Assembly: GCA_031552765.1 (NCBI GenBank)
Contig: JAVBME010000008.1
Coordinates: 66,095 to 130,094, forward strand
DNA from: Acidaminococcales bacterium
GTDB taxonomy: Bacteria; Bacillota; Negativicutes; Acidaminococcales; JAISLQ01
Reading direction: 5' to 3'
DNA length: 64,000 nucleotides
The notes beneath the pieces are model-generated. The model searched no databases. It was not told where the DNA came from and saw only the letters and a list, made by a program, of their open reading frames with translations. A program made the position numbers and the translations under genes. Shown here one piece after another: positions 18,970 through 64,000 of this stretch (the stretch's first letter is position 1; every line of letters begins with the position of its first letter).

Positions 18970-19195
18970 AATTAAAAATGATTGCGATGAAGGAAATAAG
19001 TATCTGCGATGTTTTTCCTAGAGAGCCGGGTCAGGTGCAAGCCGGTAAAAACTAACAGCGAAAGCCTCTCCCGAGCAGTATATGAAGAATATACCGCAAG
19101 CCGGCGATAAAGGCATTGAGTGTTGCTGGCAGCGTACAGCAGAACACAGGTGGTACCGCGGAATTTCCGTCCTGATTTTCAGGGCGGTTTTTTAT
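18970..19195 (+). promoter_or_regulatory. T-box riboswitch leader (tRNA-sensing transcription attenuator)
   Basis: Stem I base TTGCGATGAAGGAAATAAGTA (K-turn/AGTA). AG bulge and distal loop TAGAGAGCCGGGTCAGGTGCAAGCCGG. T-box sequence AACACAGGTGGTACCGCGG (19143-19161). Terminator CCGTCCTGA-ttt-TCAGGGCGG plus TTTTTT (19167-19194). Confidence 0.9.
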
Positions 19196-34939: not shown

Positions 34940-35135
34940 AAAAAAAGCCATACGGACATCAGAAAATGGTCGTATGACTTTTACATCTCTTCTACGCCCT
35001 TTCTCATCCAGACTATACTGTCGGTCCCGGAATCACACCGGGTCATGCTGCGCAAACAGCTCGCGGACTTTTACCGCCGGTAGGGAGTTGGCCGTGGCCT
35101 CACCCTGCCCCAAAGGCTACTTATTAAATTTAACA
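34940..35135 (-). promoter_or_regulatory. FMN riboswitch (RFN element) with terminator
   Basis: The minus strand reads GGGGCAGGGTGAGGCCACGGCCAACTCCCTACCGGCGGTAAAAGTCCGCGAGC...CCGGTGTGATTCCGGGACCGACAGTATAGTCTGGATGAGAAAGGG, which matches RFN conserved blocks. A CATACGAC/GTCCGTATG hairpin plus TTTTTTT lies at 34979-34940. Confidence 0.92.
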
Positions 35136-48136: not shown

Positions 48137-48300
48137 TAAAAAATAAAACCCCTTATTTGGGGTATGTTTTATAGTCACATTTCCCCATCTTGCGGTCGCG
48201 CCGCCGGAATTGGCACCGTTTGGCAAAAGCCATGGTTGCCGCGGTTTCATCGGGCCTTTCCCTCAACCAACTCTTGATGAGCATCATATTTAATTTAAAA
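48137..48300 (-). promoter_or_regulatory. SAM-I (S-box) riboswitch with terminator
   Basis: The minus strand reads CTCATCAAGAGTTGGTTGAGGGAAAGGCCCGATGAAACCGCGGCAACC...GGTGCCAATTCCGGCGG...AGATGGGG, which matches S-box blocks. The ACCCC-aaataa-GGGGT terminator with TTTTATTTTTT lies at 48170-48137. Confidence 0.92.
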
Positions 48301-51630: not shown

Positions 51631-52470
51631 TTATAGTAAAGATCCAAATTTTATATAAAATTTACGCTCATGCTCATTTTGTACGTCTATTGATAAAACA
51701 GACGCGGCGTTTCTATCCAGCTCACGCATGTCAAAATAGAAAAACACTTGCAACCGGTAAAGGTCTGGAACTGTTTTTTCTATTATAACAGGCTCCGGCT
51801 TTACTTCTACCGGCTGCACAGGTTGCTGCGGCTGTTTTTTATCATCGGCATTCTTCTTTGTTTTCTTATCATCTTTTTTGTCTTTTTTACTGTCCGTATC
51901 CTTGTTCTTATCTTCGCTGTTCTTATTACTGTCGCCGGTTACGGCGGGAGTTTGTTTTTGCGTCTCTGTGATCGGCGGCGGCTGAACGACTTCTTTTATG
52001 ACTTTTGTTTTTACTACCACCAATTCTTGCATGTTAACGGCATAAGGATGGATAATTTTACCGTTTTGGCTTAAAGCGGCGCTTATATTATCCGCTACAT
52101 TTTTTTTGAGGTTTTCGCCGTCACGCACAAATAACACTAAACAAAAAGGCAGTGAATTCTGATAGCCATCCAGCATTATCTGTCCGTCAGACAAGTTGAT
52201 AGTCTGGCTGGCCAAAAGGCGTTCGCGCGCATTGACCGCCACTAGATAGTACGGCGTATATGTATACGCGCGCTCGCTAAAATTATCTAAGGCTTTGCTT
52301 TTTTCTTCATATACCATCCATGGCTTGCCAAAGACAGGCAGTTCCTCTTGGTAATGCATGACTCCATATTCTTGTGCATCTTTTATTCTGGCATCATTCA
52401 TAACAGCAAACGCTGAAACTTGACTTGTGTAAAATAAAATGAATATTACTGCAAGAATAAATTTCTTCAT
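51631..52470 (-). CDS. hypothetical secreted protein with a Lys/Asp-rich disordered linker
   Basis: 279 aa with the signal peptide MKKFILAVIFILFYTSQVSAFA and a GGAGG RBS. The central low-complexity stretch is SNKNSEDKNKDTDSKKDKKDDKKTKKNADDKKQPQQPVQPVEVKPEP. Confidence 0.6.
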   Translation of the reverse strand: MKKFILAVIFILFYTSQVSAFAVMNDARIKDAQEYGVMHYQEELPVFGKPWMVYEEKSKALDNFSERAYTYTPYYLVAVNARERLLASQTINLSDGQIMLDGYQNSLPFCLVLFVRDGENLKKNVADNISAALSQNGKIIHPYAVNMQELVVVKTKVIKEVVQPPPITETQKQTPAVTGDSNKNSEDKNKDTDSKKDKKDDKKTKKNADDKKQPQQPVQPVEVKPEPVIIEKTVPDLYRLQVFFYFDMRELDRNAASVLSIDVQNEHERKFYIKFGSLL

Positions 52471-52581
52471 AAAAAACTACCTCCTGTGCAATAAAGAGAG
52501 ATACGCCATTATATGCAATAAATCCTGCTAAAAAACACATTTAAATATGATTAGTTTATTTATTAAAGCAAAAATCCTCTT

Positions 52582-53415
52582 TTAAAGCAGTAATTCACCG
52601 GTAAAAACTTTTATTGCCGGCCCGGTCATATATACATGCCCGTTTTCTTCAGACCATTCTATAAACAGGCTGCCGCCGTCAAGCACTACTTCTGCCTTGC
52701 GCCCGGTTTTACCCAAGAGCGCACCGGCCACGACGGTTGCGCACGATCCTGTACCGCAAGCTAAGGTTATGCCGGCGCCACGTTCCCAGACGCGCATGCG
52801 TACTGTTTTCTTGTCGATGATTTCCACAAACTCGATATTAGCTTTTGCCGGAAAGATGTCATGTTTTTCCAGTAATGGACCCACCTTGGCAATATCTATT
52901 GCCGCCAGTTTGTCCACGAAAATGACAAAGTGCGGGTTACCCATAGACACGCCCTGACCAAAAAATTCCTGCTCTGCTACCACTATTTTGGCCTGACTGT
53001 TTTCCGTAGCCGCTCCCGCCATCGGGATAAGCTCTCTTTTTAGCTTGGGCTCTCCCATATCTACGCATATGTTTGTTATTTCCCCGTTTTCGATTATAAG
53101 CCGGGGTTGCATTATACCGGCCAGTGTTTCTACCTTCATTTCGGTTTTATTTACCCGGCCGCTTTCATACATGTGTTTGGCCGCGCAACGGATAAGATTG
53201 CCGCACATCTCCGCCTCGCTGCCGTCGGAGTTTATCAGGCGCATACGAAAATCCGCCTTGTCCGTCGTTTCCAGAAGGCAAAGCCCGTCGGCTCCCACAC
53301 CAAAATTGCGGTCACAGATTTTCCGGGCAAAACCGGCTATATCTTCGCACTGAAAATCCATATCATCGGGTATGATAAAATCATTACCCAGACCTTGCCA
53401 TTTACTAAACCTCAT
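52582..53415 (-). CDS. dapF: diaminopimelate epimerase
   Basis: The start is reassigned to ATG 53415 (MRFSKWQGLGNDF), preceded by GAGGTG. Catalytic cysteines are in MCGN and ACGTGS. Confidence 0.93.
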   Translation of the reverse strand: MRFSKWQGLGNDFIIPDDMDFQCEDIAGFARKICDRNFGVGADGLCLLETTDKADFRMRLINSDGSEAEMCGNLIRCAAKHMYESGRVNKTEMKVETLAGIMQPRLIIENGEITNICVDMGEPKLKRELIPMAGAATENSQAKIVVAEQEFFGQGVSMGNPHFVIFVDKLAAIDIAKVGPLLEKHDIFPAKANIEFVEIIDKKTVRMRVWERGAGITLACGTGSCATVVAGALLGKTGRKAEVVLDGGSLFIEWSEENGHVYMTGPAIKVFTGELLL

Positions 53416-53577
53416 AACAACACCTCGCAACATTATGAATAAATATAGAAATAAAATTCAAAGATTGGCAGGATATATTTTATCATGGAACAAGCTATTT
53501 AACAAGTTCTATCATTGACCGGCAGCTATATATGGCATATACTTAAACAAAATCTTCATTGGGGGAGCACTACAGCT

Positions 53578-55302
53578 ATGAATCTTGAGGGCATTGCCAT
53601 ATCGCTGCAAAAAGATTTTCTCTGCGAAAAACTGCCAGGCGCGCGTATAGATAAAATATATCAGCCGGAACGCCTTTCGCTGTTTTTCCAGTTAAGGAAT
53701 AATAACTCCAATATGTTTTTTTATGCAACTTGCGGAAACTCGCCACACATTCGCATAACAGATAAAACACCGGAAAATCCGGAAAATCCCCCCTCTTTTT
53801 GCATGTTGCTCAGGAAACATTTGGAAAATGGCCGGATAATGCAAATAGCCCAGCATAAACTGGACCGGATAATTATTATGGATATAGATACATTGGGCAA
53901 GGGTAAAAATATAGTAACAAAACAACTGGTTTTTGAGTTGACAGGAAAAAGCAGTAACATAATTTTTTTGCAGGACAATATTATCATTGATTGTTTAAAA
54001 CATATCGGACCGTCGGTCAGCCGTTTCAGGCAATTGCTGCCCGGCCGCGAATACATGCCGCCGCCGCAAAAAGAAGGTTTTAATATATTGTCGGCTCAGG
54101 CGCTAGAGATAGTCCACGCTTTGCCTGCAAGCGCTAAATCACTCAGTAAAAGTTTGATAGAACAGACATTGGGCATCGGTCCGCTCACCGCAAACGAGAT
54201 CGCCTGGCGCGCCGGCCTCCCACCCGACCTGCCGGCCGCTAATCTTGATGCAAAAGACAGCGTAGCTTTATGTGAGGCGATAGAAAGCATAGTACTGCCG
54301 ATAAAAAATAATGCCGCCCGCTCTTTCGTTGCTGTAGATAATGAAGGCGGCCTCCTTGCGGTAGCTCCTTTCGCGCCTCAGCATTTGCCGTCAGGACAAG
54401 TAAAAGAATTTGCCACAATGAATGCGGCAATCTCCTTTGCCATTAAGTTGCAACCGGCGAAAAGCCCTCTAAATGTCACCCTGTCTAAACAGGTTCGGAG
54501 CGAAATAACGCGCCTCGAAAAGAAAATGGATATCCTTAGCGAAGAAACAGTTGCGGCCCAGAATGCGGACAGGTTAAAAGAAACGGCCGATAATATAATG
54601 TCCCAGCTCTATGCCATAAAAAAAGGGGAAGAGCTTTGCCTTGTCACAGATATTTTTACCGGCGAACAGATAGAAATCAAACTGGATCCCTTGCTTACTC
54701 CGGTAGAAAATGCCCAGCGTTACTACAAACTATATAATAAGGCCAAACGCGCTGTCAGCCAATTGCAGCAGCAAACGCGCGAAAGCTCTGAATTGCTGGA
54801 TTACCTTATGGGGGTAGAGTTTTCTTTAGAAGAAGCAAAAACGTCCGGCGAGGTTTTGGAAATAAAAAATGAACTTCTTGCCGCCGGTATACTACAGGAA
54901 AAAACTTACCGCCCGCTTCGTACGCAAATAAGCCAACCCTGGAAAATAACTCTGGCGTCAGGGGCTATCATATATGTAGGAAAAAACAACCGGCAAAATG
55001 ACCAACTGACCTTTAAAACAGCAAAAGCAGGCGATCTGTGGCTGCATGCCAAAAACATCCCGGGCTCTCATGTAATATTGCAAAACAGCAGCCCGGACAA
55101 CCAGGAAGGCCTCTTTACCGCCGCGCTTTTGGCGGCTTGGTTTAGTAAGGCACGCAGATCTTCCAACATACCGGTCGATTACACATTTAAAAAACATGTC
55201 AAAAAACCGGCCGGCGCCCGGCCAGGCTTCGTCATTTACGAACAGCAGAAAACCATCCAAGTAACTACTGATGAAGAAAAAATCAAACACATACTCCAAT
55301 GA
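53578..55302 (+). CDS. rqcH: ribosome quality control protein RqcH (NFACT/FbpA family)
   Basis: The track ORF starts at 53515; ATG 53578 (MNLEGIAISLQKDF...) is the likely start. NFACT-N, a coiled coil and an NFACT-R/DUF814 block (LHAKNIPGSHVIL). Confidence 0.88.
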   Translation: MNLEGIAISLQKDFLCEKLPGARIDKIYQPERLSLFFQLRNNNSNMFFYATCGNSPHIRITDKTPENPENPPSFCMLLRKHLENGRIMQIAQHKLDRIIIMDIDTLGKGKNIVTKQLVFELTGKSSNIIFLQDNIIIDCLKHIGPSVSRFRQLLPGREYMPPPQKEGFNILSAQALEIVHALPASAKSLSKSLIEQTLGIGPLTANEIAWRAGLPPDLPAANLDAKDSVALCEAIESIVLPIKNNAARSFVAVDNEGGLLAVAPFAPQHLPSGQVKEFATMNAAISFAIKLQPAKSPLNVTLSKQVRSEITRLEKKMDILSEETVAAQNADRLKETADNIMSQLYAIKKGEELCLVTDIFTGEQIEIKLDPLLTPVENAQRYYKLYNKAKRAVSQLQQQTRESSELLDYLMGVEFSLEEAKTSGEVLEIKNELLAAGILQEKTYRPLRTQISQPWKITLASGAIIYVGKNNRQNDQLTFKTAKAGDLWLHAKNIPGSHVILQNSSPDNQEGLFTAALLAAWFSKARRSSNIPVDYTFKKHVKKPAGARPGFVIYEQQKTIQVTTDEEKIKHILQ

Positions 55303-55304
55303 TG

Positions 55305-55351
55305 AAAAACAGCAGGCAGCTTGAAAGATGGAAAGCTGCCCGCTGTTTTTT
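55305..55351. terminator. bidirectional terminator between convergent rqcH and the PAP2 gene
   Basis: AAAAACAGCAGGCAGCTT-gaaagatgg-AAGCTGCCCGCTGTTTTTT, about 13 bp of stem with one mismatch. Confidence 0.8.
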
Positions 55352-56096
55352 AATGTCCCAGTAAATGTTTTTTATTCATATTTATTCGCAGCTTAGCAAG
55401 CACATCTGGCTGCTCCACCAGCCTGTTTATCAATAGCAATATTGACCAGGCCAGCGCGGTGACAAAAAGCGTGTGACTTAAAAAATGCTCGCCTCTTAAC
55501 ATTTGGTAGATGCCCATATACCAGCCTAACCCCAAGGCTAACGCCCGCGCTATACGGCGCTTTTTTTCTTCGGCAAAACAAAAATACAATACCATCAAGG
55601 CCAGCCCCCCGCTGGCATGGCCGGCGGGAAAACCGGCGCCGCGCGAAATCTGCACAAAATTTGCCGGGTATTTTCTTAGCGCTGGCGCGTAAGGATTGGC
55701 GCCATTATAACGCTGTATCTGGTAAGGGCAATATACATTGGTGATATCTTTCAATATACCGACACAAGAAGGAATGAGCGCTAAGGCCAGAAAAATCTTA
55801 AGGAAATTTTTCCGCCATTGCAGGAAGGCTCCTGTTTTCCGTGAATATATGTATGCGCCAATATTCAGTGCAGCAAATATGATCAAAAATGTTTTTGGCA
55901 GTGTGTACAGCAAAAAACCCCATTGTTCGTGAAAAACCTTACTGATAAACCATTGCCCGGTCTGGCGGTTGAAGAACAAATCCTGTAACCAAAGGTCAAA
56001 AGGGGTAAAACTTTCGAAAAACAAAATTATCACCATAGCAAACATTGGAAAGGAAAGTTTTTTTAGAAATGATCTCTTCTCTTTCATAATAATCAT
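55350..56096 (-). CDS. PAP2 superfamily membrane phosphatase (lipid phosphatase type)
   Basis: 248 aa, polytopic, with FPAGHASGG (PSGH-like) and RGEHFLSHTL blocks. The start is either ATG 56096 or, better spaced from the RBS, ATG 56087. Confidence 0.75.
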   Translation of the reverse strand: MIIMKEKRSFLKKLSFPMFAMVIILFFESFTPFDLWLQDLFFNRQTGQWFISKVFHEQWGFLLYTLPKTFLIIFAALNIGAYIYSRKTGAFLQWRKNFLKIFLALALIPSCVGILKDITNVYCPYQIQRYNGANPYAPALRKYPANFVQISRGAGFPAGHASGGLALMVLYFCFAEEKKRRIARALALGLGWYMGIYQMLRGEHFLSHTLFVTALAWSILLLINRLVEQPDVLAKLRINMNKKHLLGH

Positions 56097-56128
56097 CTCT
56101 CCTAAAAATTTTATATTTAGGAGAGATG
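56094..56128 (-). promoter_or_regulatory. perfect 13 bp hairpin that pairs the Shine-Dalgarno sequence and first ATG of the PAP2 gene
   Basis: CATCTCTCCTAAA (56094-56106) and TTTAGGAGAGATG (56116-56128) are exact reverse complements separated by a 9 nt loop. Confidence 0.55.
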
Positions 56129-56161
56129 ATACAGGACATGATTGAAATTTTCATGAAAATC

Positions 56162-57103
56162 TTACAAAGTTATATCTGCAGCACCTGTCAGGGTCTGCTT
56201 AGCCTGGCTGATTATCCTCTCAATAACTTCTTTGCAGGGTTTTATATCTTTTAAAACATAGAGGCTCTGTCCTACCTGTACGGCGCCGTTTTCCACATCG
56301 CCGTCTACCGAACCTTTGCGGTTGGTACCGGCCGCCATTTGGTTGAGTTCATCCTGCGGCGCTCCGCTGACTTCTTTAGCCATGAAACGCTCAGTAAAAG
56401 CGTTGCGTAGGCTGCGCACGCCATAGTTGCGCGAATAGCCGGTCACTACCGAGTCGGTATCTACGGCTTCCACTATTTTCTGTTTGAAATCCGGATGAGC
56501 CGGGCACTCGTCGGTGAGCAGGAACCTTGAACCCATCTGTACGCCTGATGCTCCCATCAAAAGAGCCGCCGCCATGGCCCGACCGTCGGATATGCCGCCT
56601 GCTACTAGTACCGGCAAATTGACCAATGGTATGACATTGCTCATCAAGGCCATTGAGGTAAGGGTGCCAATATGGCCGCCGCCTTCCATACCTTCGATGA
56701 CTATCGCGTCCGCGCCTTTTTCTTCCACTCTTTTTGCCAGTTTTACACTGGGCACTACAGGAATTATTTTGACGCCGCTCTTTTTAAGCTGCTCAAAAAA
56801 TGGCACCGGATTGCCCGCGCCGATAGTCATAAAGGCGACTTTTTCTTCACAGGCTACATCGACTATTTTTTCCACCTGCGGCGTCATGAGGGTGATATTT
56901 ATGCCAAAGGGTTTGTCGGTAAGTTTTTTTGCTTTTTGTATTTCTTCACGCGACCATTCCACCGTGCGCCCGCCTGTGCCAATTATGCCGGCGCCGCCGG
57001 CGTTGGAGACTGCCGCCGCCAATACGGCGTCTGATGCCCAAGCCATGCCCCCCTGTATTATCGGATATTTTATGCCTAATAACTGCGTCAAACGGTTTTG
57101 CAT
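56162..57103 (-). CDS. NPD-fold FMN oxidoreductase (nitronate monooxygenase / FabK-like enoyl-ACP reductase family)
   Basis: The start is reassigned to ATG 57103 (MQNRLTQLLGIKYPIIQGGMAW), preceded by AAGGAGAGG. A GGHIG block is present. Confidence 0.75.
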   Translation of the reverse strand: MQNRLTQLLGIKYPIIQGGMAWASDAVLAAAVSNAGGAGIIGTGGRTVEWSREEIQKAKKLTDKPFGINITLMTPQVEKIVDVACEEKVAFMTIGAGNPVPFFEQLKKSGVKIIPVVPSVKLAKRVEEKGADAIVIEGMEGGGHIGTLTSMALMSNVIPLVNLPVLVAGGISDGRAMAAALLMGASGVQMGSRFLLTDECPAHPDFKQKIVEAVDTDSVVTGYSRNYGVRSLRNAFTERFMAKEVSGAPQDELNQMAAGTNRKGSVDGDVENGAVQVGQSLYVLKDIKPCKEVIERIISQAKQTLTGAADITL

Positions 57104-57243
57104 TTCATTCCTCTCCTTTTGAGCATAATTGTAAAAATACACTGTTGTTTTCAGTGATACCGTATACATAGTATCGCAGAAAACTCTTGTAACTGTCAAA
57201 TATAAGAATTTTTTTCCGCTACTTTTCTTTTTAATACATTATG

Positions 57244-57258
57244 TTATAATAGTTATCG
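57244..57258 (+). promoter_or_regulatory. extended -10 promoter element overlapped by a Fur-family-like box
   Basis: TGt-TATAAT lies at 57242-57250. TTATAATAGTTATCG matches the 7-1-7 Fur consensus TGATAATnATTATCA at 11 of 14 specified positions. Confidence 0.4.
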
Positions 57259-57303
57259 TCAACTAACACTGTTTCCGTTATATAACTTTTGAGGTGATAT
57301 ATT

Positions 57304-58557
57304 TTGCGCTCCCAACTGGATATCAATAACACTATTTTTGACATTACAGAAAAACATCCTGAAACCGTCGATTTTTTCGTCGCCAACGGTTTCCCCCAGT
57401 TTTCCGACAATCAAATGAGAAGTTTATTAGGTAAAGCAGTAACTTTGCGGGAAGCATTATTAAGCAAAAGAATCAATCATGAGGTTTTTTTACAAAAACT
57501 TGATGATATCATCACGCAAAACAGCATTGCTATTGAGCTGGGCCTGACCGAGGCCAAACGGGAAAACGGCGGCGCTATCCGTATTGAGGGCGTGTTGCCC
57601 TGCCCTATCCGCATACCGTTTTTGGAAAAGTTCAGCCGCTGGCTGGAGGAAAATGAAAATAAACTGGGATTTACGGCCGACTTTGATTTGCGTCCGGCCA
57701 GCATGGGCGTTTCCTGGATAAAGGAGCGCATAATTGCCAATAAAGAAAACGCTGAAGAAAAGCTGACCGATATATTTATGTCGGCCGGCTTTGAATTGTT
57801 TTTTGAGAACAATCTGATTAAAAAATATAAAGACAGGGGCATTTTTGAAAATATTACAGGTGTTGCTAAATTGAATACCGATTTTGACAATCAGCATATC
57901 GATTTAAAAGACCCGGACAATCATTACGCGGTCATCGGCGTAGTGCCGGCAATTTTTATAGTTAATAAGACCCTCCTTAGCAACCGCCCCCTTCCTGCGA
58001 CATGGGAAGACCTGCTGCGGCCGGAGTTTGCCGACTGTGTATCTTTGCCGCTGGAAGACCTCGACATGTTTGACGCCATATTATTAAATATCTATAAAAA
58101 ATACGGTGCAGACGGCGTAGCTAAGCTGGGTAAAGCTATGCTCAAAAGCATGCACCCGGCAGCCATGCTCAAATCTTACCTGGCTGGCGACGCGAAAAGC
58201 GTACCGGTAGTTTCCGTGCTGCCTTATTTTTTCGCCAAAACAATGCCGCCAGGCAGTCCGTTTGTCACAGTCTGGCCTAAAGACGGAGCGATAATCAGCC
58301 CCATATATTTGATAACGAAAAAATCCAGCCAACACCTGACCAAACCCTTTGTTGATTTTCTTTTTTCCAAGGAGATCGGCGATGTTTTCTCCGTGCAGGG
58401 CTTTTTCCCCTCCACCCATCCGCAAGTGGACAACGGTTTTGGTGAAGGGCAGAACTTCATGTGGCTGGGCTGGGACTACATAAAAGAAAACGATATCGGC
58501 AGGCTTATTGCCCAAACAAAACATATCTTCTACAAAGAAATGGAGGAAAAAAAATAG
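57304..58557 (+). CDS. DUF1858-like N-terminal domain fused to a periplasmic-binding-protein-like (ABC substrate-binding fold) domain; no signal peptide
   Basis: 417 aa with a TTG start 7 nt after GAGGTG. The N-terminus NTIFDITEKHPETVDFFVANGF...TLREAL is DUF1858-like. The body carries SBP-type blocks (AVIGVVPAIFIVNK, PATWEDLLRPEF). No hydrophobic leader or lipobox is present. Confidence 0.6.
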   Translation: MRSQLDINNTIFDITEKHPETVDFFVANGFPQFSDNQMRSLLGKAVTLREALLSKRINHEVFLQKLDDIITQNSIAIELGLTEAKRENGGAIRIEGVLPCPIRIPFLEKFSRWLEENENKLGFTADFDLRPASMGVSWIKERIIANKENAEEKLTDIFMSAGFELFFENNLIKKYKDRGIFENITGVAKLNTDFDNQHIDLKDPDNHYAVIGVVPAIFIVNKTLLSNRPLPATWEDLLRPEFADCVSLPLEDLDMFDAILLNIYKKYGADGVAKLGKAMLKSMHPAAMLKSYLAGDAKSVPVVSVLPYFFAKTMPPGSPFVTVWPKDGAIISPIYLITKKSSQHLTKPFVDFLFSKEIGDVFSVQGFFPSTHPQVDNGFGEGQNFMWLGWDYIKENDIGRLIAQTKHIFYKEMEEKK

Positions 58558-58558
58558 C

Positions 58559-59254
58559 ATGGATCTGGCGATTTTTTCCGGCCCTCCATCTTCCGGCAAG
58601 ACCTCCGTCATTTTAAAAGTGATAGATGCTTTGCAAAAGAGAAATGTTTGCGCCGGCGTCGTAAAATTTGACTGCCTGTACACCGATGACGACCTTTCGT
58701 ATAAAAAAGCCGGCATACCTGTGAAAAAAGGACTGTCCGGCGCATTATGCCCCGACCATTTTTTTGCCGCCAATATCGAAGAAGTTGTCGCTTGGGGAAA
58801 AAATTTATCTTTAGACCTTCTTGTTACCGAATCGGCCGGGTTGTGCAACCGCTGTTCTCCTTATTTGAAAGAAACAACAGCCGTCTGCGTCATCGATAAC
58901 CTGTCCGGCATAAATACGCCGAAAAAAATTGGCCCGATGCTCAAAGCCGCCGATATTGCGGTAATAACCAAGGGTGATATCGTATCCCAGGCGGAGCGTG
59001 AAGTTTTTGCCACCAGGGTCATGTCGGTAAACCCCAAAGCCAGGGTCATGCATGTGAATGGTTTGACCGGACAGGGCGCTTTTGAGTTGAGCAAGCATAT
59101 TTTTGAAAGCAAAAAAGACATCTCTTCTGTAGAAAATATGCAGCTGAGGTTTTCCATGCCGGCCGCGCTCTGCTCTTACTGCCTGGGCGAAACGCGTATC
59201 GGCGAAAGTTACCAACTGGGCAATATCAAAAAAATAGATTTGGCAGGCGGCTGA
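58559..59254 (+). CDS. G3E-class P-loop GTPase related to UreG/HypB/CobW metallochaperones
   Basis: The start is reassigned to ATG 58559, 1 nt after the upstream stop. Motifs are GPPSSGKTS, LCPDH, LLVTESAGLCNRC, ITKGD and a C-terminal CSYC. Confidence 0.7.
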   Translation: MDLAIFSGPPSSGKTSVILKVIDALQKRNVCAGVVKFDCLYTDDDLSYKKAGIPVKKGLSGALCPDHFFAANIEEVVAWGKNLSLDLLVTESAGLCNRCSPYLKETTAVCVIDNLSGINTPKKIGPMLKAADIAVITKGDIVSQAEREVFATRVMSVNPKARVMHVNGLTGQGAFELSKHIFESKKDISSVENMQLRFSMPAALCSYCLGETRIGESYQLGNIKKIDLAGG

Positions 59255-59256
59255 CT

Positions 59257-60267
59257 ATGGAAAATATTAAAATAAAAAACCTTGAAACCAAATACCCCTT
59301 TATACATAATTATTTTTCCAGCAATAAAATAGACGTTTCTGCGGCCAAAGAAAAAAGCTTCCGGCAATTGCTGGATTCTTACAGCCCGCTAAAATTAGAA
59401 GAAGAGGCCATAGACAAAGAAAAACTTATAGCAGATATGCATGTTTTCGTCGAGCAAATGTCTTCATTCCTCGGTATAAAAAATGACCGGCTGTCCTCTT
59501 TGACCATAGTTGCCGGCCAGGATAAAAACGGCGCGTCGGAAAATTTTGGCGAAATAACGATAAATTCTTCGGAAATAGTGTCCATCGTCGGGCCTACCGG
59601 CTCGGGTAAAAGCCGGCTCTTGGCCGATATAGAAGTGATAGCGCAAGAAGATACCCCTACCCGGCGCACCATACTGCTGGACGGGCAAAAAAATAAAGAA
59701 AGAAGCTTTTCTTCCGCCAATAATAAACTGGTGGCCCAGCTTTCGCAGAACATGAATTTCGTCATGGACCTTACGGTTGAGGAATTCCTCTCTTTGCACG
59801 CGGAAAGCCGTATGGTGACCGACGCGGAAAAACGCATTGAACGTATCATCAACGAGGCCAACCAGCTGTCCGGCGAATCATTCGGCCCGGATACCCACCT
59901 GACCAGTTTGAGCGGTGGCCAGTCGCGCGCCCTCATGATAGCCGACACCGCCATTTTGAGCACCTCCCCTGTCGTTTTGATCGACGAGATAGAAAATGCC
60001 GGCGTTGACCGCAAAAAAGCTTTACAACTGCTTTTGAACGAAGACAAGATAGTCTTTATTTCTACTCATGACCCGGTTTTGGCGCTCATGGCCGACAAAC
60101 GGCTGGTCATAAAAAACGGCGGCATAGATAAGGTAATCGGTACCAGCACGGAAGAAAAAGGGTTGCTAAACGAATTGGAAACCATAGAAACATCCATGCA
60201 AAATATGCGGCAAAAATTACGTTCAGGAGGCAGGGTAGGAGCAAAAGACCTGCCCCGCTATCTTTGA
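59257..60267 (+). CDS. soluble ABC-type ATPase with a ~100 aa N-terminal extension; no cognate permease nearby
   Basis: 336 aa starting 2 nt after the upstream stop. Walker A GPTGSGKS, signature LSGGQ, Walker B VVLIDE, H-loop STHD. Confidence 0.8.
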   Translation: MENIKIKNLETKYPFIHNYFSSNKIDVSAAKEKSFRQLLDSYSPLKLEEEAIDKEKLIADMHVFVEQMSSFLGIKNDRLSSLTIVAGQDKNGASENFGEITINSSEIVSIVGPTGSGKSRLLADIEVIAQEDTPTRRTILLDGQKNKERSFSSANNKLVAQLSQNMNFVMDLTVEEFLSLHAESRMVTDAEKRIERIINEANQLSGESFGPDTHLTSLSGGQSRALMIADTAILSTSPVVLIDEIENAGVDRKKALQLLLNEDKIVFISTHDPVLALMADKRLVIKNGGIDKVIGTSTEEKGLLNELETIETSMQNMRQKLRSGGRVGAKDLPRYL

Positions 60268-60318
60268 ACGGTAAAATAAATAACCTTGTATTAGTTTTAT
60301 TTGAGACGGAGGAGTAGT

Positions 60319-62229
60319 ATGAAAAAGAAAAAACTTGTCACCGGAGCCCTTGCCTGTTTTATGGCTGCGGCCAACCCCAGCGCTTTTGCCGAGGAAAAAC
60401 TCGAGACCTTCGAACTTGACCCGGTAGTCGTTACCGCCAGCAAAACGCCCAGGCACGCCAAAGAAGTTTCCGCCGCCGTGCAAGTCATTACTAAAAGTGA
60501 GATAGAGTCTATCGGCGCCGCCAACCTCGAACAGGCTTTGCACCTGGCTACCGGCGTACAAATCGGCACAAATTCCGGTACAGGTAAGAAAAGCCCGATG
60601 ATACGCGGTTTTGACTCGCGTTTTTCCACTATTTTGATCAACGGCCGCCGCCTGGCGGCCGAACCTGACCAGTTATATGAACTAAACCGCATCACTTTGG
60701 CCAATGTGGAACGCATCGAAATAGTCCGCGGGCCTATGAGCGTCCTTTACGGCACGGAAGCGATGGGCGGCGTCATAAATATCATAGTCAGGAACTCCGA
60801 CACCCGTTCGCTGCTCTTGAGCGCCGACCTTGGCACATACGGCGGCGATAATAATCCGCAAAATTACAATATTGACTTCCAGTCCGGCCAAACCGGACGC
60901 TTTCGCTATTCATTATACGGATCTTACCGCGACAACAACGACCCTATGTACAAAAGCAACGGCCTGACCTACGAGCCATACGGCTGGCACAGCAATATCG
61001 GCGGCCGGGTGGAATATGACCTGTCGAAAACCGAAGTGCTGGCCCTTGATATTGCTTACGAAGAAGAACGCACCAACGAAATATCCAATATGGCTAACCT
61101 TAACCAGCAAACCCTCGACAATAACCGCCGCAATGAGCAATCTTTGAGTTATACAAGGAAAACCGACAATACAGAACTGTTTTTCCGCTATTATAACGGC
61201 GTACTTGATAAAGACGTCGACCAATTAAATAAAAACACCGGTCAGCTATTGCAGCCCGGCAGTTGGGTACGGGCCGAGCGTACCATGCGCGCCTTGGAAG
61301 GCCGTCTGACCCGCAAAGTCAACGATCAGCACACAGTAACTTTCGGCGCCGAATACCGGCCGGAGAAGTTTAAGGGCACGTCGGTCAATACCGGCGAAGG
61401 TATTTTTAACACTACATATAATGGTGTAACAAAAACCGGTTCTACCGCCTGGCTGGACTATTTCGGCATTTACCTTATGGATGAATGGCAGGCGACCGAC
61501 AGGTGGCGTATTATTACCGCCCTCAGGTATGACGACAGCAACAAATTCGAAAGCGACTGGAGCCCGAAACTCGGCCTTATTTATCAGTTCAACGACAAAT
61601 CCCGTTTGAAAGCCAATGCCGGGCACGCCTTCCGCAGCCCTACCCCTAATCAGCTTTATAATAACCAACCTACCTCTTTGGGCAACCCCAACCTGAAATC
61701 GGAAAAAGCCAATTCTTATGATATTTCTTACGAACAGGACTACAGCCGTTCGGGTTATAAACTCACCTATTTTTATAACGATATATCAAACCTTATCGAA
61801 GTGCAAAACAACAGATACCAAAATATCGCCAAAGCAACCATCCAGGGTATAGAAGCTGAATACCTGACCCGTTTCAACAACAACTGGTCGTGGATAAATG
61901 CCTGGGCCTATCTTGACGCAACCGACGACACCACCGGGCAACGCCTGAAAGGCCGCTCGCGCAATGTGCTTACTTCCCGCATCGCCTATTCGGACAACAA
62001 ATATTTTTCCGCTAGTTTCTGGGGCGAGCTATACCACGACTATCTGCCTACTACGCCGACCATCAGCACGCGTGAACGCTCCTATGTCACATGGAACCTA
62101 GCCGCTACCTATTCGCTCAATAAAAACACCAAGTTTATTTTAGGCGTATACGACATATTCGACAAAATGGACGAAGACGCCAATGTTATGGGCCGCTACG
62201 CACACCTGACTGTACAGTTTAAATTCTGA
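60319..62229 (+). CDS. TonB-dependent outer-membrane receptor (BtuB-sized)
   Basis: The start is reassigned to ATG 60319 (MKKKKLVTGALACFMAAANPSAFA), preceded by GGAGGAG. TonB box DPVVVTAS, a plug domain (IRGFDSRFSTILINGRRL), a beta-barrel repeat pattern and a C-terminal ...TVQFKF. Confidence 0.9.
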   Translation: MKKKKLVTGALACFMAAANPSAFAEEKLETFELDPVVVTASKTPRHAKEVSAAVQVITKSEIESIGAANLEQALHLATGVQIGTNSGTGKKSPMIRGFDSRFSTILINGRRLAAEPDQLYELNRITLANVERIEIVRGPMSVLYGTEAMGGVINIIVRNSDTRSLLLSADLGTYGGDNNPQNYNIDFQSGQTGRFRYSLYGSYRDNNDPMYKSNGLTYEPYGWHSNIGGRVEYDLSKTEVLALDIAYEEERTNEISNMANLNQQTLDNNRRNEQSLSYTRKTDNTELFFRYYNGVLDKDVDQLNKNTGQLLQPGSWVRAERTMRALEGRLTRKVNDQHTVTFGAEYRPEKFKGTSVNTGEGIFNTTYNGVTKTGSTAWLDYFGIYLMDEWQATDRWRIITALRYDDSNKFESDWSPKLGLIYQFNDKSRLKANAGHAFRSPTPNQLYNNQPTSLGNPNLKSEKANSYDISYEQDYSRSGYKLTYFYNDISNLIEVQNNRYQNIAKATIQGIEAEYLTRFNNNWSWINAWAYLDATDDTTGQRLKGRSRNVLTSRIAYSDNKYFSASFWGELYHDYLPTTPTISTRERSYVTWNLAATYSLNKNTKFILGVYDIFDKMDEDANVMGRYAHLTVQFKF

Positions 62230-62263
62230 GTTTAATATTTTTGTAACAATCTAATTTAAGATT

Positions 62264-62316
62264 CCTCGCCTGCGGCTCAAAATGACGGATAAATGTCATT
62301 GCGAACACAGGCGGGG
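62264..62316 (+). terminator. two-tier hairpin downstream of the receptor gene (possible terminator)
   Basis: The outer stem is CCTCGCCTG/CAGGCGGGG (9 bp, one G:U). The inner stem is AATGAC/GTCATT. It is followed by GATTGTTATTTAT. Confidence 0.4.
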
Positions 62317-62438
62317 GATTGTTATTTATAATTGGCAAAATCTTTCTTTAATCTGACTATTGAGTTATAATAATATACATATTCACAAAAAACAAGCCAA
62401 AAACAAGTGTGTTATGTATCGAAAGAGAGGTTTTTCAA

Positions 62439-64000
62439 TTGAGACGTTCAGATGATGTAAAAAAAGGCTCCACCAGGGCGGCGCACCGTTCTTTGTTCAG
62501 CGCGCTGGGTTTTACCAAAGAAGATATGGACAAGCCGCTTATCGGCATAGTAAATGCGCAAAATGAAATAATCCCCGGCCACCTGCACCTTGATATAATC
62601 GCCAAAGCAGTAAAAGAAGGCGTATGGGCGCACGGCGGCGTACCGGTAGAAGTTCCGGCCATCGGCATCTGCGACGGTATCGCCATGGGGCACCAGGGTA
62701 TGAAATACCCCCTCCCGAGCCGCGAACTTATCGCCGACAGCATCGAAGCCATGGCCAACGGCCATTGTTTTGACGCCCTGGTGCTTATACCCAATTGCGA
62801 CAAAATCGTCCCCGGCATGCTGATGGCAGCGGCTAGGCTCAACATCCCCTGCGTGGTCGCCAGCGGCGGCCCTATGCTGGCCGGTCGTTTTGCCGGTAAA
62901 GATGTCGGCGTGAGCAATGTTTTTGAGGCGGCCGGACGCTTTGAAGCAGGCAAAATAACCGTAGACGAGCTGGAAGAAATAGAGTCTTCCGCCTGCCCCG
63001 GTTGCGGCTCCTGTTCCGGCATGTATACGGCCAACACCATGAACTGTCTGGCCGAAGTTTTAGGCCTGGCTTTGCCCGGCAACGGCACCATACCCGCCGC
63101 CCACCAGGGCGCGCGTACGGCGCTTTCCCGCACCGCCGGCAAACAGGTCATGCAAATGCTGGAGAAGAATATCTGCCCGCGCGACATCATGACCCTTGAC
63201 GCTTTCAAAAACGCTATCACGGTAGACATGGCTATCGGCGGCTCCAGCAATACCACCCTGCACCTGCCCGCCATCGCCCACGAGGCCGGGATAGAGCTCT
63301 CGCTCGACTTATTCAACGATATTGCTAAAACTACCCCTTATATCGCCTCACTAAGCCCGGGCGGCTCACACTTCATCCAGGAACTGAACGAGGCGGGCGG
63401 CATCCCGGCGGTCATGAAAGAACTGGACAAGAAAAAACTCATGCACACCGGCTGCATGACCGTAACAGGCCAAACCTTGACCGACAATCTGACAAAAGTA
63501 CAAAACCGCAACACCGAAGTCATCCGTCCGATAGACAAGCCTTACCGGCCCACCGGCGGCATAGCCATCCTTCGCGGCAATCTGGCTCCTGACGGCGCGG
63601 TCGTAAAAGAAAGCGCAGTAGCCGAAGAAATGCTGGTGCATTCCGGCCCGGCGCGGGTTTATGATTCGGAAGAGCAGGCAATCGATGCCATCATCGGCAA
63701 AAAAATAAAGAGCGGCGACGTTATAGTCATCCGCTACGAAGGGCCTAAAGGCGGCCCCGGCATGAAAGAAATGCTCAATCCCACCTCCGTCCTGGCCGGC
63801 ATGGGGCTCGACAAAGAAGTGGCCCTACTGACCGACGGCCGCTTTTCCGGCGCGACGCGCGGCGCTTGCATCGGTCATGTCTCACCGGAAGCCATGGAAG
63901 GCGGGCTTATCGGCCTCATACAAGAAGGCGACATCATAGAGATAGATATTCCCAACCGCAAACTAGCCGTCAAACTGGCTGATGAGGACATCGCCAAGCG
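62439..64000 (+). CDS. ilvD: dihydroxy-acid dehydratase, N-terminal ~520 aa; runs off the right edge
   Basis: Absent from the ORF track because there is no stop in the window. Manual translation from TTG 62439 (after GAAAGAGAGG) gives [47 protein letters not shown]...CDGIAMGH...[10 protein letters not shown]. Confidence 0.9.

Follow-up and report, generated by a model that had tools for sequence, protein, structure and literature searches.

A permease-less cassette of an SBP-fold protein, a G3E GTPase and an ABC ATPase in Firmicutes: a candidate chaperone or repair module for iron centres, joined to a TonB-dependent receptor in one Negativicutes clade

The stretch analysed here, 64,000 nucleotides (nt) of DNA from an Acidaminococcales bacterium (hereafter the window), carries four co-directional genes, A to D, coding for a protein with the fold of substrate-binding proteins (SBPs), a GTPase of the G3E class, an ATPase of the ATP-binding cassette (ABC) type and a TonB-dependent receptor. 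We found that A-B-C is a fixed and widespread soluble three-protein cassette of Firmicutes, and that the window is a member of a small, derived Negativicutes clade, to which the link with the receptor is limited. The trio is most likely not a transporter. We tentatively propose that it is a nucleotide-driven chaperone or repair module for iron or iron-sulphur (Fe-S) centres, part of a nitrosative-stress regulon, a proposal to which we give nearly, but not quite, an even chance.

A conserved three-gene cassette without a permease

Eighty-seven orthologous loci from Tissierellia, Lachnospiraceae, Oscillospiraceae and Negativicutes were examined (L-numbers below designate such loci, and P-numbers proteins obtained by homology searches). 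A was found in 86 of them, B in 85 and C in 82, and their order and strand are constant wherever the contig extends. As this order recurs in every one of the more than 80 loci from other genomes that have sufficient contig, the arrangement is not due to chance. Homologues of A number 861 at E<=1e-10, and at least 495 Firmicutes species encode one. In the window the four genes lie on the plus strand: A at 57304-58557 (417 amino acids, aa; TTG start), B at 58559-59254 (231 aa), C at 59257-60267 (336 aa) and D at 60319-62229 (636 aa), with junctions of 1, 2 and 51 nt, the junctions being those that an earlier note on this DNA had described.

That note had also remarked that no membrane-spanning ABC permease accompanies the operon, and we indeed found none in the operon or on either flank (52000-64000). 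The same is true of the family: in 76 of 81 loci no co-operonic gene codes for four or more transmembrane segments, which supports the view that the absence of a permease is a family trait and not the result of a local deletion or displacement. The five remaining loci have, upstream of A, pairs of half-transporters that form self-sufficient exporters with their own nucleotide-binding domains (NBDs). None of the A-B-C proteins matched a characterised transporter family above its cut-off. The four objections that the earlier note had raised against its own hypothesis (a displaced permease, a hidden signal peptide, a body without the SBP fold and a known transporter family) were thus all examined, and none was borne out.

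Exporter pairs of this kind (ABC_membrane plus ABC_tran, about 575-740 aa each) adjoin the trio in 11 loci, e.g. L076:5820-9892, mostly upstream and on the same strand; in L005 the pair is on the other strand. We considered them as the missing permease and rejected this: they have their own NBDs, and a site of the HcpR type—discussed below—lies between the pair and A in the loci checked for it (L047, L073, L076, L081 and L084).

The three proteins

Two Pfam domains are recognised in A, DUF1858 at residues 6-61 (E 2e-12) and SBP_bac_6 at residues 153-396 (E 1.5e-75), so that the protein can be described as a helical DUF1858 domain, a linker and a class-II SBP body spanning approximately residues 90-417. 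The SBP_bac_6 match has in common with A the segment W-x-D-L-x-x-P-E-F. The N-terminus reads MRSQLDINNTIFDITEKHPE; its TTG, preceded by the ribosome-binding site GAGGTG, is the first possible start past the upstream stop, so that A cannot be extended on this side and no corrected start provides it with a leader. Besides, 15 homologues align to A from residue 1, the DUF1858 domain is kept across 115 homologues, and neither a hydrophobic leader nor a segment resembling a transmembrane helix is present in A, B or C. These features of the sequence support the prediction that A stays in the cytoplasm.

The AlphaFold2 (AF2) model of A, built with 115 homologues, has a predicted local distance difference test (pLDDT) score of 88.8. 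Searched with Foldseek, its SBP body matches best FbpA/FutA, which are ferric-binding proteins, and the related AfuA (E ~1e-12, TM-scores 0.54/0.69, 9-17% identity); PotD is also among the matches. When the profile of A is compared with the sequences of the PDB, the nearest are 2fi0 (DUF1858; E 1.7e-6), the pyridoxal-phosphate binder P5PA and PotD. The modelled body certainly belongs to the SBP fold class, a class that does not by itself fix the ligand. Invariant residues include Cys100 (in GVLPCP, at the beta1-alpha1 junction), W234, D252, D254, W324-P325, W387 and W390. We take the junction that bears Cys100 to be equivalent to a cleft-lining site, by analogy with His9 of FbpA and Trp34-Tyr37 of PotD. 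Among solved structures we found no close relative of A, nor of B or C.

B matches the cobW/HypB/UreG family (PF02492, E 8.6e-11) and stays well below the NCBIfam cut-offs for hypB (52.7 bits vs 121.2) and ureG (27.9 vs 204.2). Its open reading frame (ORF) may open at 58508, yet 74 of 74 orthologues begin at MDLAIF/MKL. The motifs are a P-loop GPPSSGKTS, C64-P-D-H67, E91-S-A-G-L-C96-N-R-C99, T137-K-G-D and C205-S-Y-C208. Conservation was assessed on the 74 orthologues and on 22 distant relatives: C64-P-D, E-x-A-G-L-C96-x-R-C99-x-P and C205-x-x-C208 are kept in at least 90% of the relatives of B, down to 28% identity, while H67 and the NKxD-like T-[KR]-x-D are kept in most of them; C39, H67 and C110 are also conserved among close orthologues. 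The AF2 model (pLDDT 86.9) finds with Foldseek HypB (2hf8) and UreG (4hi0/5xkt) as best matches. The family is small and isolated, with 467 cluster representatives at E<=1e-3 among 1.84 billion. These data support the assignment of B to the HypB/UreG branch of the G3E GTPases, with a predicted conserved Cys/His metal site.

C contains ABC_tran (PF00005) at residues 100-244, and its NBD is complete—Walker A GPTGSGKS, Q-loop region, LSGGQ, Walker B LIDEIE and H271, motifs that are conserved in the orthologues. Ahead of it stands an N-terminal domain of some 95 aa, itself conserved, which matches no family. A second DUF1858 was envisaged for this domain and stays unproven: hhalign aligned 24 columns with a probability of 14% (E 0.002), and Pfam returned nothing. 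All NCBIfam matches of C are far below the cut-offs and all are to NBDs of transporters; the SufC family is absent among the 25 matches listed. The description given by the earlier note for the three proteins, that is a cytoplasmic DUF1858-SBP protein, a G3E GTPase with Cys/His motifs of the metallochaperone type and a complete NBD with an extra N-terminal domain, is borne out by these domain, motif and structural matches.

The search of representatives with B brought out two natural fusions of B with C, P0244 (613 aa) and P0246 (509 aa), an argument for B and C working in a single complex. In P0246 most of the N-terminal domain of C is missing.

Operators and neighbours of the cassette

The context of the trio points to nitrosative stress and to iron or Fe-S chemistry rather than to metal import, since operators of the HcpR type, hcp, CRP/FNR regulator genes and suf genes are found beside it. 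The motif GTAAC-N4-GTTAC is the consensus established by Rodionov et al. 2005 for HcpR2, a regulator of hcp of the CRP/FNR family, found in Clostridia and other anaerobes (PMC1274295). Exact copies of it number 58 in the loci (1.5 Mb), as compared with ~1.7 estimated from base composition; 56 of the 58 are intergenic, and nearly all of them stand directly upstream of A or of hcp. The operator ahead of the trio, with the consensus GTAACnnnnGTTAC, is the same as that found ahead of hcp in the same loci.

Another palindrome, GTTGTA-N2-TACAAC, was found in Lachnospiraceae; 35 of its 40 hits in the loci scored upstream of A. A scan of metagenomes with 14 specified bases gave 120 arbitrary hits, mostly due to chance and inside genes; the informative part is the intergenic subset, with sites upstream of hcp (n=2) and of genes for FrdX-like ferredoxins (n=3, two of them divergent from CRP/FNR regulator genes). 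The presence of these sites upstream of hcp and of FrdX-like genes indicates that the second palindrome is a variant of the HcpR operator. Altogether, an HcpR-type palindrome occurs in 79 of the 83 distinct regions upstream of A, five of these 79 having only the looser form GTTG-N6-CAAC.

In 23 loci hcp itself lies on the same strand within 10 kb of the trio, mostly a few genes downstream and separately transcribed. L089, L032 and L027 each have a CRP/FNR regulator gene adjacent to the trio, the lineages concerned being a Sporomusaceae metagenome-assembled genome (MAG), Pelosinus and Muricomes, and in L015, L046 and L087 the sufCBDS genes begin ~200 nt downstream of the trio, SufC being there the product of a separate gene of 254 aa. 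The main texts of PMC1274295 and of PMC12915319, the latter on hcpR of C. difficile, do not name the trio as a target of HcpR. Elsewhere, proteins with DUF1858 have been placed in a similar context: bsl7085 belongs to the NnrR regulon of Bradyrhizobium (PMC6710368), and DrpB of Thermus is a DUF1858 protein in a nitrogen-oxide context (PMC6282519). As to the nickel role towards which the earlier note leaned, it finds no support in the context, and genes for hydrogenase, urease, carbon monoxide dehydrogenase (CODH) or cobalamin do not recur beside the trio in the 87 loci.

A protein of ~80 aa, rich in cysteine (two CxxC pairs), is encoded after C in 22 Tissierellia loci, e.g. L001, L008, L014 and L010:12942-13184. 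Its similarity to the HypA zinc ribbon is weak (E 1.3e-3, below the cut-off), and in most of these 22 loci hcp is found further downstream; the window has no such gene.

Boxes resembling the Fur site at 13 of 14 positions were observed in L091 (at -32), in L216 (just downstream of the -10 element) and in L071, with P ~3.5e-4 across the upstream regions; L091 and L216 are among the few loci that have no HcpR operator. In Lachnospiraceae, a palindrome TGATA-N5-TATCA stands at a fixed distance, ~31 nt upstream of the GTTG-N6-CAAC operator, in loci which include L013, L019, L038-L040, L043, L044, L057, L068 and L075. It resembles the Fur 7-1-7 box (11-13 of 14) and could be a site for Fur or for another regulator.

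The window copy and its receptor

D is, from its sequence, a standard TonB-dependent outer-membrane receptor: it matches Plug (E 2.9e-26) and TonB_dep_Rec_b-barrel (E 1.2e-46), its barrel is of the 22-strand type, its signal peptide MKKKKLVTGALACFMAAANPSAFA is typical, and a TonB box LDPVVVTAS as well as a terminal ...QFKF ending in Phe could be read by eye from the translation. As was claimed before, it is the only envelope protein of the operon. The best NCBIfam match is TonB-B12, with 218.5 bits vs 599.7, about one third of the cut-off; a second, BtuB model gives 160.3 vs 836. The closest named homologue comes from an Acidaminococcales MAG, and the others from Sporomusaceae and other Negativicutes; these being receptors of Negativicutes, the source organism should be a diderm Firmicute. 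Control of the operon by cobalamin through a riboswitch was considered and rejected: neither the window nor seven related loci (L003, L088, L093, L094 and L095 among them) gave a cobalamin riboswitch with Rfam.

The order A-B-C-receptor was observed in four contigs only, namely the window, L088, L093 and L216, and most trios, those of other Negativicutes included, have no receptor. In Acetonema a Peripla_BP_2 gene and a receptor gene are located upstream of the trio. Conversely, the idea that the orthologous group of D is always tied to the trio had to be abandoned, as homologues at 61% and 53% identity stand alone. The coupling to TonB-dependent uptake, which the earlier note took as a property of the module, is therefore that of one clade; of the metal or metallocofactor hand-off module proposed there, the cytoplasmic hand-off is retained, and the general coupling to uptake and the nickel role are not.

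The receptor-linked clade has diverged in other respects. In its four copies C is altered at positions that do not vary in any of the 72 other orthologues: W127 is changed to V or T, P146 to N or A, and W150 is variable, so that IEW-T-AQ becomes IEV-I/C-AQ and PDKKWR (residues 146-151) is degenerate; residue 154 is also listed among the altered positions. In the 400 nt upstream of A, the window contains neither GTAAC-N4-GTTAC, even with two mismatches allowed, nor GTTG-N6-CAAC; control of this copy by HcpR was consequently rejected. L088 and L216, whose upstream regions are complete, likewise have no HcpR operator. They have in common a TATAAT followed by a Fur-like box, and footprinting of the window promoter against both revealed no block that the window shares with them.

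A candidate extended -10 promoter element, TGTTATAAT, was read directly from the sequence at 57242-57250 (plus strand); coordinate 57244, with which the earlier note opened the operon, belongs to this element and is not a gene start. A Fur/PerR-like 7-1-7 match overlaps it at 57244-57258, with 11 of 14 positions and three mismatches. Because such a score is at chance level, the control of the window copy by Fur is suspected as a lead and is not a finding.

Gene A of L216 (1932-3184) comes in two parts, one ORF of 183 aa with DUF1858 and another of 199 aa with SBP_bac_6, possibly because of a frameshift, an assembly error or a genuine split.

Discussion

A, B and C are made of parts from known superfamilies, and metallochaperones that hydrolyse nucleoside triphosphates (NTPs) are a known kind of system. 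The soluble architecture in three parts, and the place that it apparently has in the HcpR regulon, do not seem to have been described: we found no description of the trio in the literature on DUF1858, on HcpR or on the maturation of Hcp. Our proposal of an iron or Fe-S chaperone or repair module stems from the fact that iron and Fe-S centres are affected by nitric oxide (NO) as well as by iron limitation. The cargo—iron or Fe-S—the direction of its transfer, the clients and every step of the following mechanism are what we infer. The module would be used when iron or Fe-S centres are damaged or when iron is short. A would hold the cargo in its cleft of the FbpA/PotD class, with the invariant cysteine; its DUF1858 domain is, we assume, of the kind found in the RIC/ScdA iron-centre repair proteins, and in the same superfamily as the N-domain of ScdA. 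B may bind the metal or the cluster through its conserved cysteines and release it on GTP hydrolysis, and C could be a soluble ABC-type clamp or motor working with B, much as SufC does within Suf. In most lineages the cassette would probably be switched on by HcpR, an NO-responsive member of the CRP/FNR regulators, given that the type of operator ahead of the cassette also precedes hcp. In the clade of the window the HcpR operator is absent where the upstream region is available, C has changed and the operon has gained a TonB-dependent receptor, which plausibly links the cassette to the acquisition of an iron compound.

One may go further and see in A-B-C an unrecognised metallocofactor machine, made of a cytoplasmic SBP-fold cargo holder, an ABC ATPase devoid of permease and a G3E GTPase from a fifth branch of that class, which would assemble or mend the Hcp hybrid cluster along with other Fe-S centres damaged by NO, and which, in the window clade, the added receptor would have rewired from the control by NO to that of iron uptake. 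In this extended form, we regard the proposal as doubtful. If our reading is right, the cassette of hundreds of anaerobic Firmicutes, with Hungatella, Lacrimispora, Oscillibacter and Tissierella as examples of gut genera, would represent a part of the nitrosative-stress response that has not been studied. It would also offer a handle on the assembly or repair of the Hcp hybrid cluster and of NO-damaged Fe-S centres in anaerobes, and on the roles of G3E GTPases beyond the HypB, UreG, CobW and MeaB families. Finally, it would be a clear case of transporter parts—SBP and ABC ATPase—reused as soluble machinery.

Several observations weigh against the role in iron or Fe-S repair under nitrosative stress. 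Judged by its profile, A stands as near to P5PA and PotD as it does to proteins that bind iron, and the classical His/Glu/Tyr/Tyr ligand set of FbpA is not demonstrated in it; the HypB/UreG-like site of B would suit nickel or zinc equally; and the NBD of C is more like those of transporters than like SufC. The adjacency of hcp is limited to Tissierellia, and that of suf to one group of Lachnospiraceae. For the window itself the difficulty is greater, as it has no HcpR operator, and neither hcp, hcpR nor frdX in its 64 kb: the membership in a stress regulon is here extended to a visibly divergent clade from orthologues with no more than 60% identity, and a Fur-like score of 11/14 arises in ~5% of 260-nt stretches. 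Besides, we found in the literature no experimental datum on any member of the A-B-C family.

Among known systems, G3E GTPase metallochaperones operate in the nickel-insertion systems HypB/HypA and UreG/UreEFH (reviewed in PMC9164220). B resembles HypB and UreG by its G3E fold, its P-loop, an ExxG Walker B, the NKxD-like TKGD and Cys/His residues at the position of the metal site, and the small protein that accompanies the trio in Tissierellia recalls HypA by its weak zinc-ribbon match. It differs from them in falling below the equivalog cut-offs and in possessing the extra conserved pairs C96-x-x-C99 and C205-x-x-C208; furthermore, no hydrogenase or urease gene is nearby, and the fixed partners of B, an SBP-fold protein and an ABC ATPase, are absent from the Hyp and Ure systems. 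With SufBC2D the trio shares an ABC-type ATPase deprived of permease, and in several Lachnospiraceae it is placed directly upstream of sufCBDS; suf operons also respond to stress and iron. C is nevertheless not an orthologue of SufC: it has its own N-terminal domain of ~95 aa, and no scaffold like SufB/SufD is part of the trio.

The body of A has the fold, and C the canonical NBD, of the importers FbpABC, FutABC, AfuABC and PotABCD, whose SBPs are of cluster D, but A has DUF1858 in the place of a signal peptide or lipobox, a permease is missing and a GTPase stands between A and C. With RIC/YtfE/ScdA and other DUF1858 proteins the likeness lies in NO-responsive regulons: ytfE is under NsrR, bsl7085 under NnrR, and the A family has operators of the HcpR type. 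A differs from these proteins by the absence of a hemerythrin-like di-iron domain, by a DUF1858 without conserved cysteines and by its other partners. Concerning the HcpR regulon (hcp, frdX), the trio has the operator consensus in common with hcp and a CRP/FNR gene adjacent in three lineages, from which the window copy departs by having no operator.

A narrower version of our favoured reading would make the trio a dedicated maturation or repair system for the [4Fe-2S-2O] hybrid cluster of Hcp, comparable to HypA/HypB or to CooC for the C-cluster of CODH. The common operator and the proximity of hcp in 23 loci speak for it, as does the HypA-like Cys-rich protein that follows C in 22 loci, mostly with hcp further downstream; moreover Hcp is structurally related to CODH, whose cluster requires an NTPase chaperone, and no maturation factor of the hybrid cluster is mentioned in PMC10502027. 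However, most loci—all those of Lachnospiraceae and Oscillospiraceae, and most of those of Negativicutes—have no hcp within 10 kb, and the clade of the window, which has none in its 64 kb, has lost the HcpR operator. Hcp of organisms devoid of the trio, such as E. coli, is not known to need such factors for its maturation. We hold a dedication to Hcp for unlikely. That B has the nickel chaperones HypB and UreG as nearest structural relatives, with its C-P-D-H and Cys motif at the position of their metal site, might alternatively designate the trio as a metallochaperone set for nickel, cobalt or zinc, serving a client encoded elsewhere, the receptor then importing the metal or a complex of it, e.g. 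a corrinoid. The B12 receptor model as best family match of D, and the Peripla_BP_2 and receptor genes upstream of the trio in Acetonema, go in the same direction. Against such a set, no hydrogenase, urease, CODH or cobalamin gene recurs beside the trio, no cobalamin riboswitch was detected in the window or the seven related loci, D is far below the BtuB cut-offs, and the signals that do recur (HcpR, hcp, suf, Fur-like boxes) are related to iron or NO. This makes the hypothesis decidedly unlikely.

Cytoplasmic SBP-like domains act elsewhere as sensors, e.g. the regulatory domain of NrtC and the effector domains of LysR, and the trio could work similarly, with B and C transducing the signal of a small molecule (nitrite, a polyamine or a phosphorylated metabolite, for instance) sensed in the cleft of A. 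The proximity of A, by profile, to P5PA and PotD, which bind organic ligands, and its conserved set rich in Trp, Phe and Asp are consistent with such a function. Yet no DNA-binding or signalling output domain is found in the cassette, B has five to eight conserved Cys/His of the sort typically seen in proteins that handle metals, and it would be unusual for a sensor to combine two nucleotide hydrolases; we consider this improbable. Lastly, the fold of A and the NBD of C, which are most like parts of FbpABC/PotABCD-type importers and NBDs of the MacB/LolD type, could belong to an ordinary ABC transporter whose permease would be encoded elsewhere in every genome. It is difficult to reconcile this with a cytoplasmic N-domain and the lack of a leader in 115 homologues of A, with the lack of a linked permease in 76 of 81 loci across four lineages, with a G3E GTPase always located between A and C and sometimes fused to C, or with scores far below the cut-off of every transporter family, and a remote permease appears highly improbable.

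Surroundings of the operon

Downstream of D, a stem-loop followed by a U-rich tract (62260-62320, plus strand; RNA fold -34.7 kcal/mol, z -5.2, equalled by 0 of 200 shuffles) is probably the intrinsic terminator that closes the four-gene operon. The neighbours are those announced by the earlier note: ilvD, which starts at ~62440 on the plus strand, downstream, and a FabK-like gene on the minus strand upstream (TIGR03151, E 1.7e-116, below the cut-off). The FabK-like ORF, 56162-57199, runs from a TTG at 57199 and scores 388.8 bits vs the FabK equivalog cut-off of 453.1. On an identical Logan contig the gene was called with 313 aa; its likely start is an internal Met (MQNRLTQLL...), which leaves a divergent intergenic region of ~200 nt.

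Rfam gave no RNA element near the operon. At a distance, the window contains a T-box leader (18978-19177, plus strand), a flavin mononucleotide (FMN) riboswitch (34992-35121, minus strand) and an S-adenosylmethionine (SAM) riboswitch (48182-48283, minus strand), all above gathering scores; they are typical of Firmicutes and have no relation to the A-B-C finding. At 51631-52470 (minus strand), a protein of 279 aa with a signal peptide displays a long stretch of low complexity rich in Lys, Asp, Pro and Gln, KKDKKDDKKTKKNADDKKQPQQPVQPVEVKPEP. Finally, 53515-55302 (plus strand) codes for a 595-aa protein of the NFACT family, with NFACT_N and NFACT-R_1 recognised on the identical Logan contig L007; it is of the RqcH/FbpA type involved in ribosome quality control, and this FbpA has no relation to the ferric-binding FbpA.

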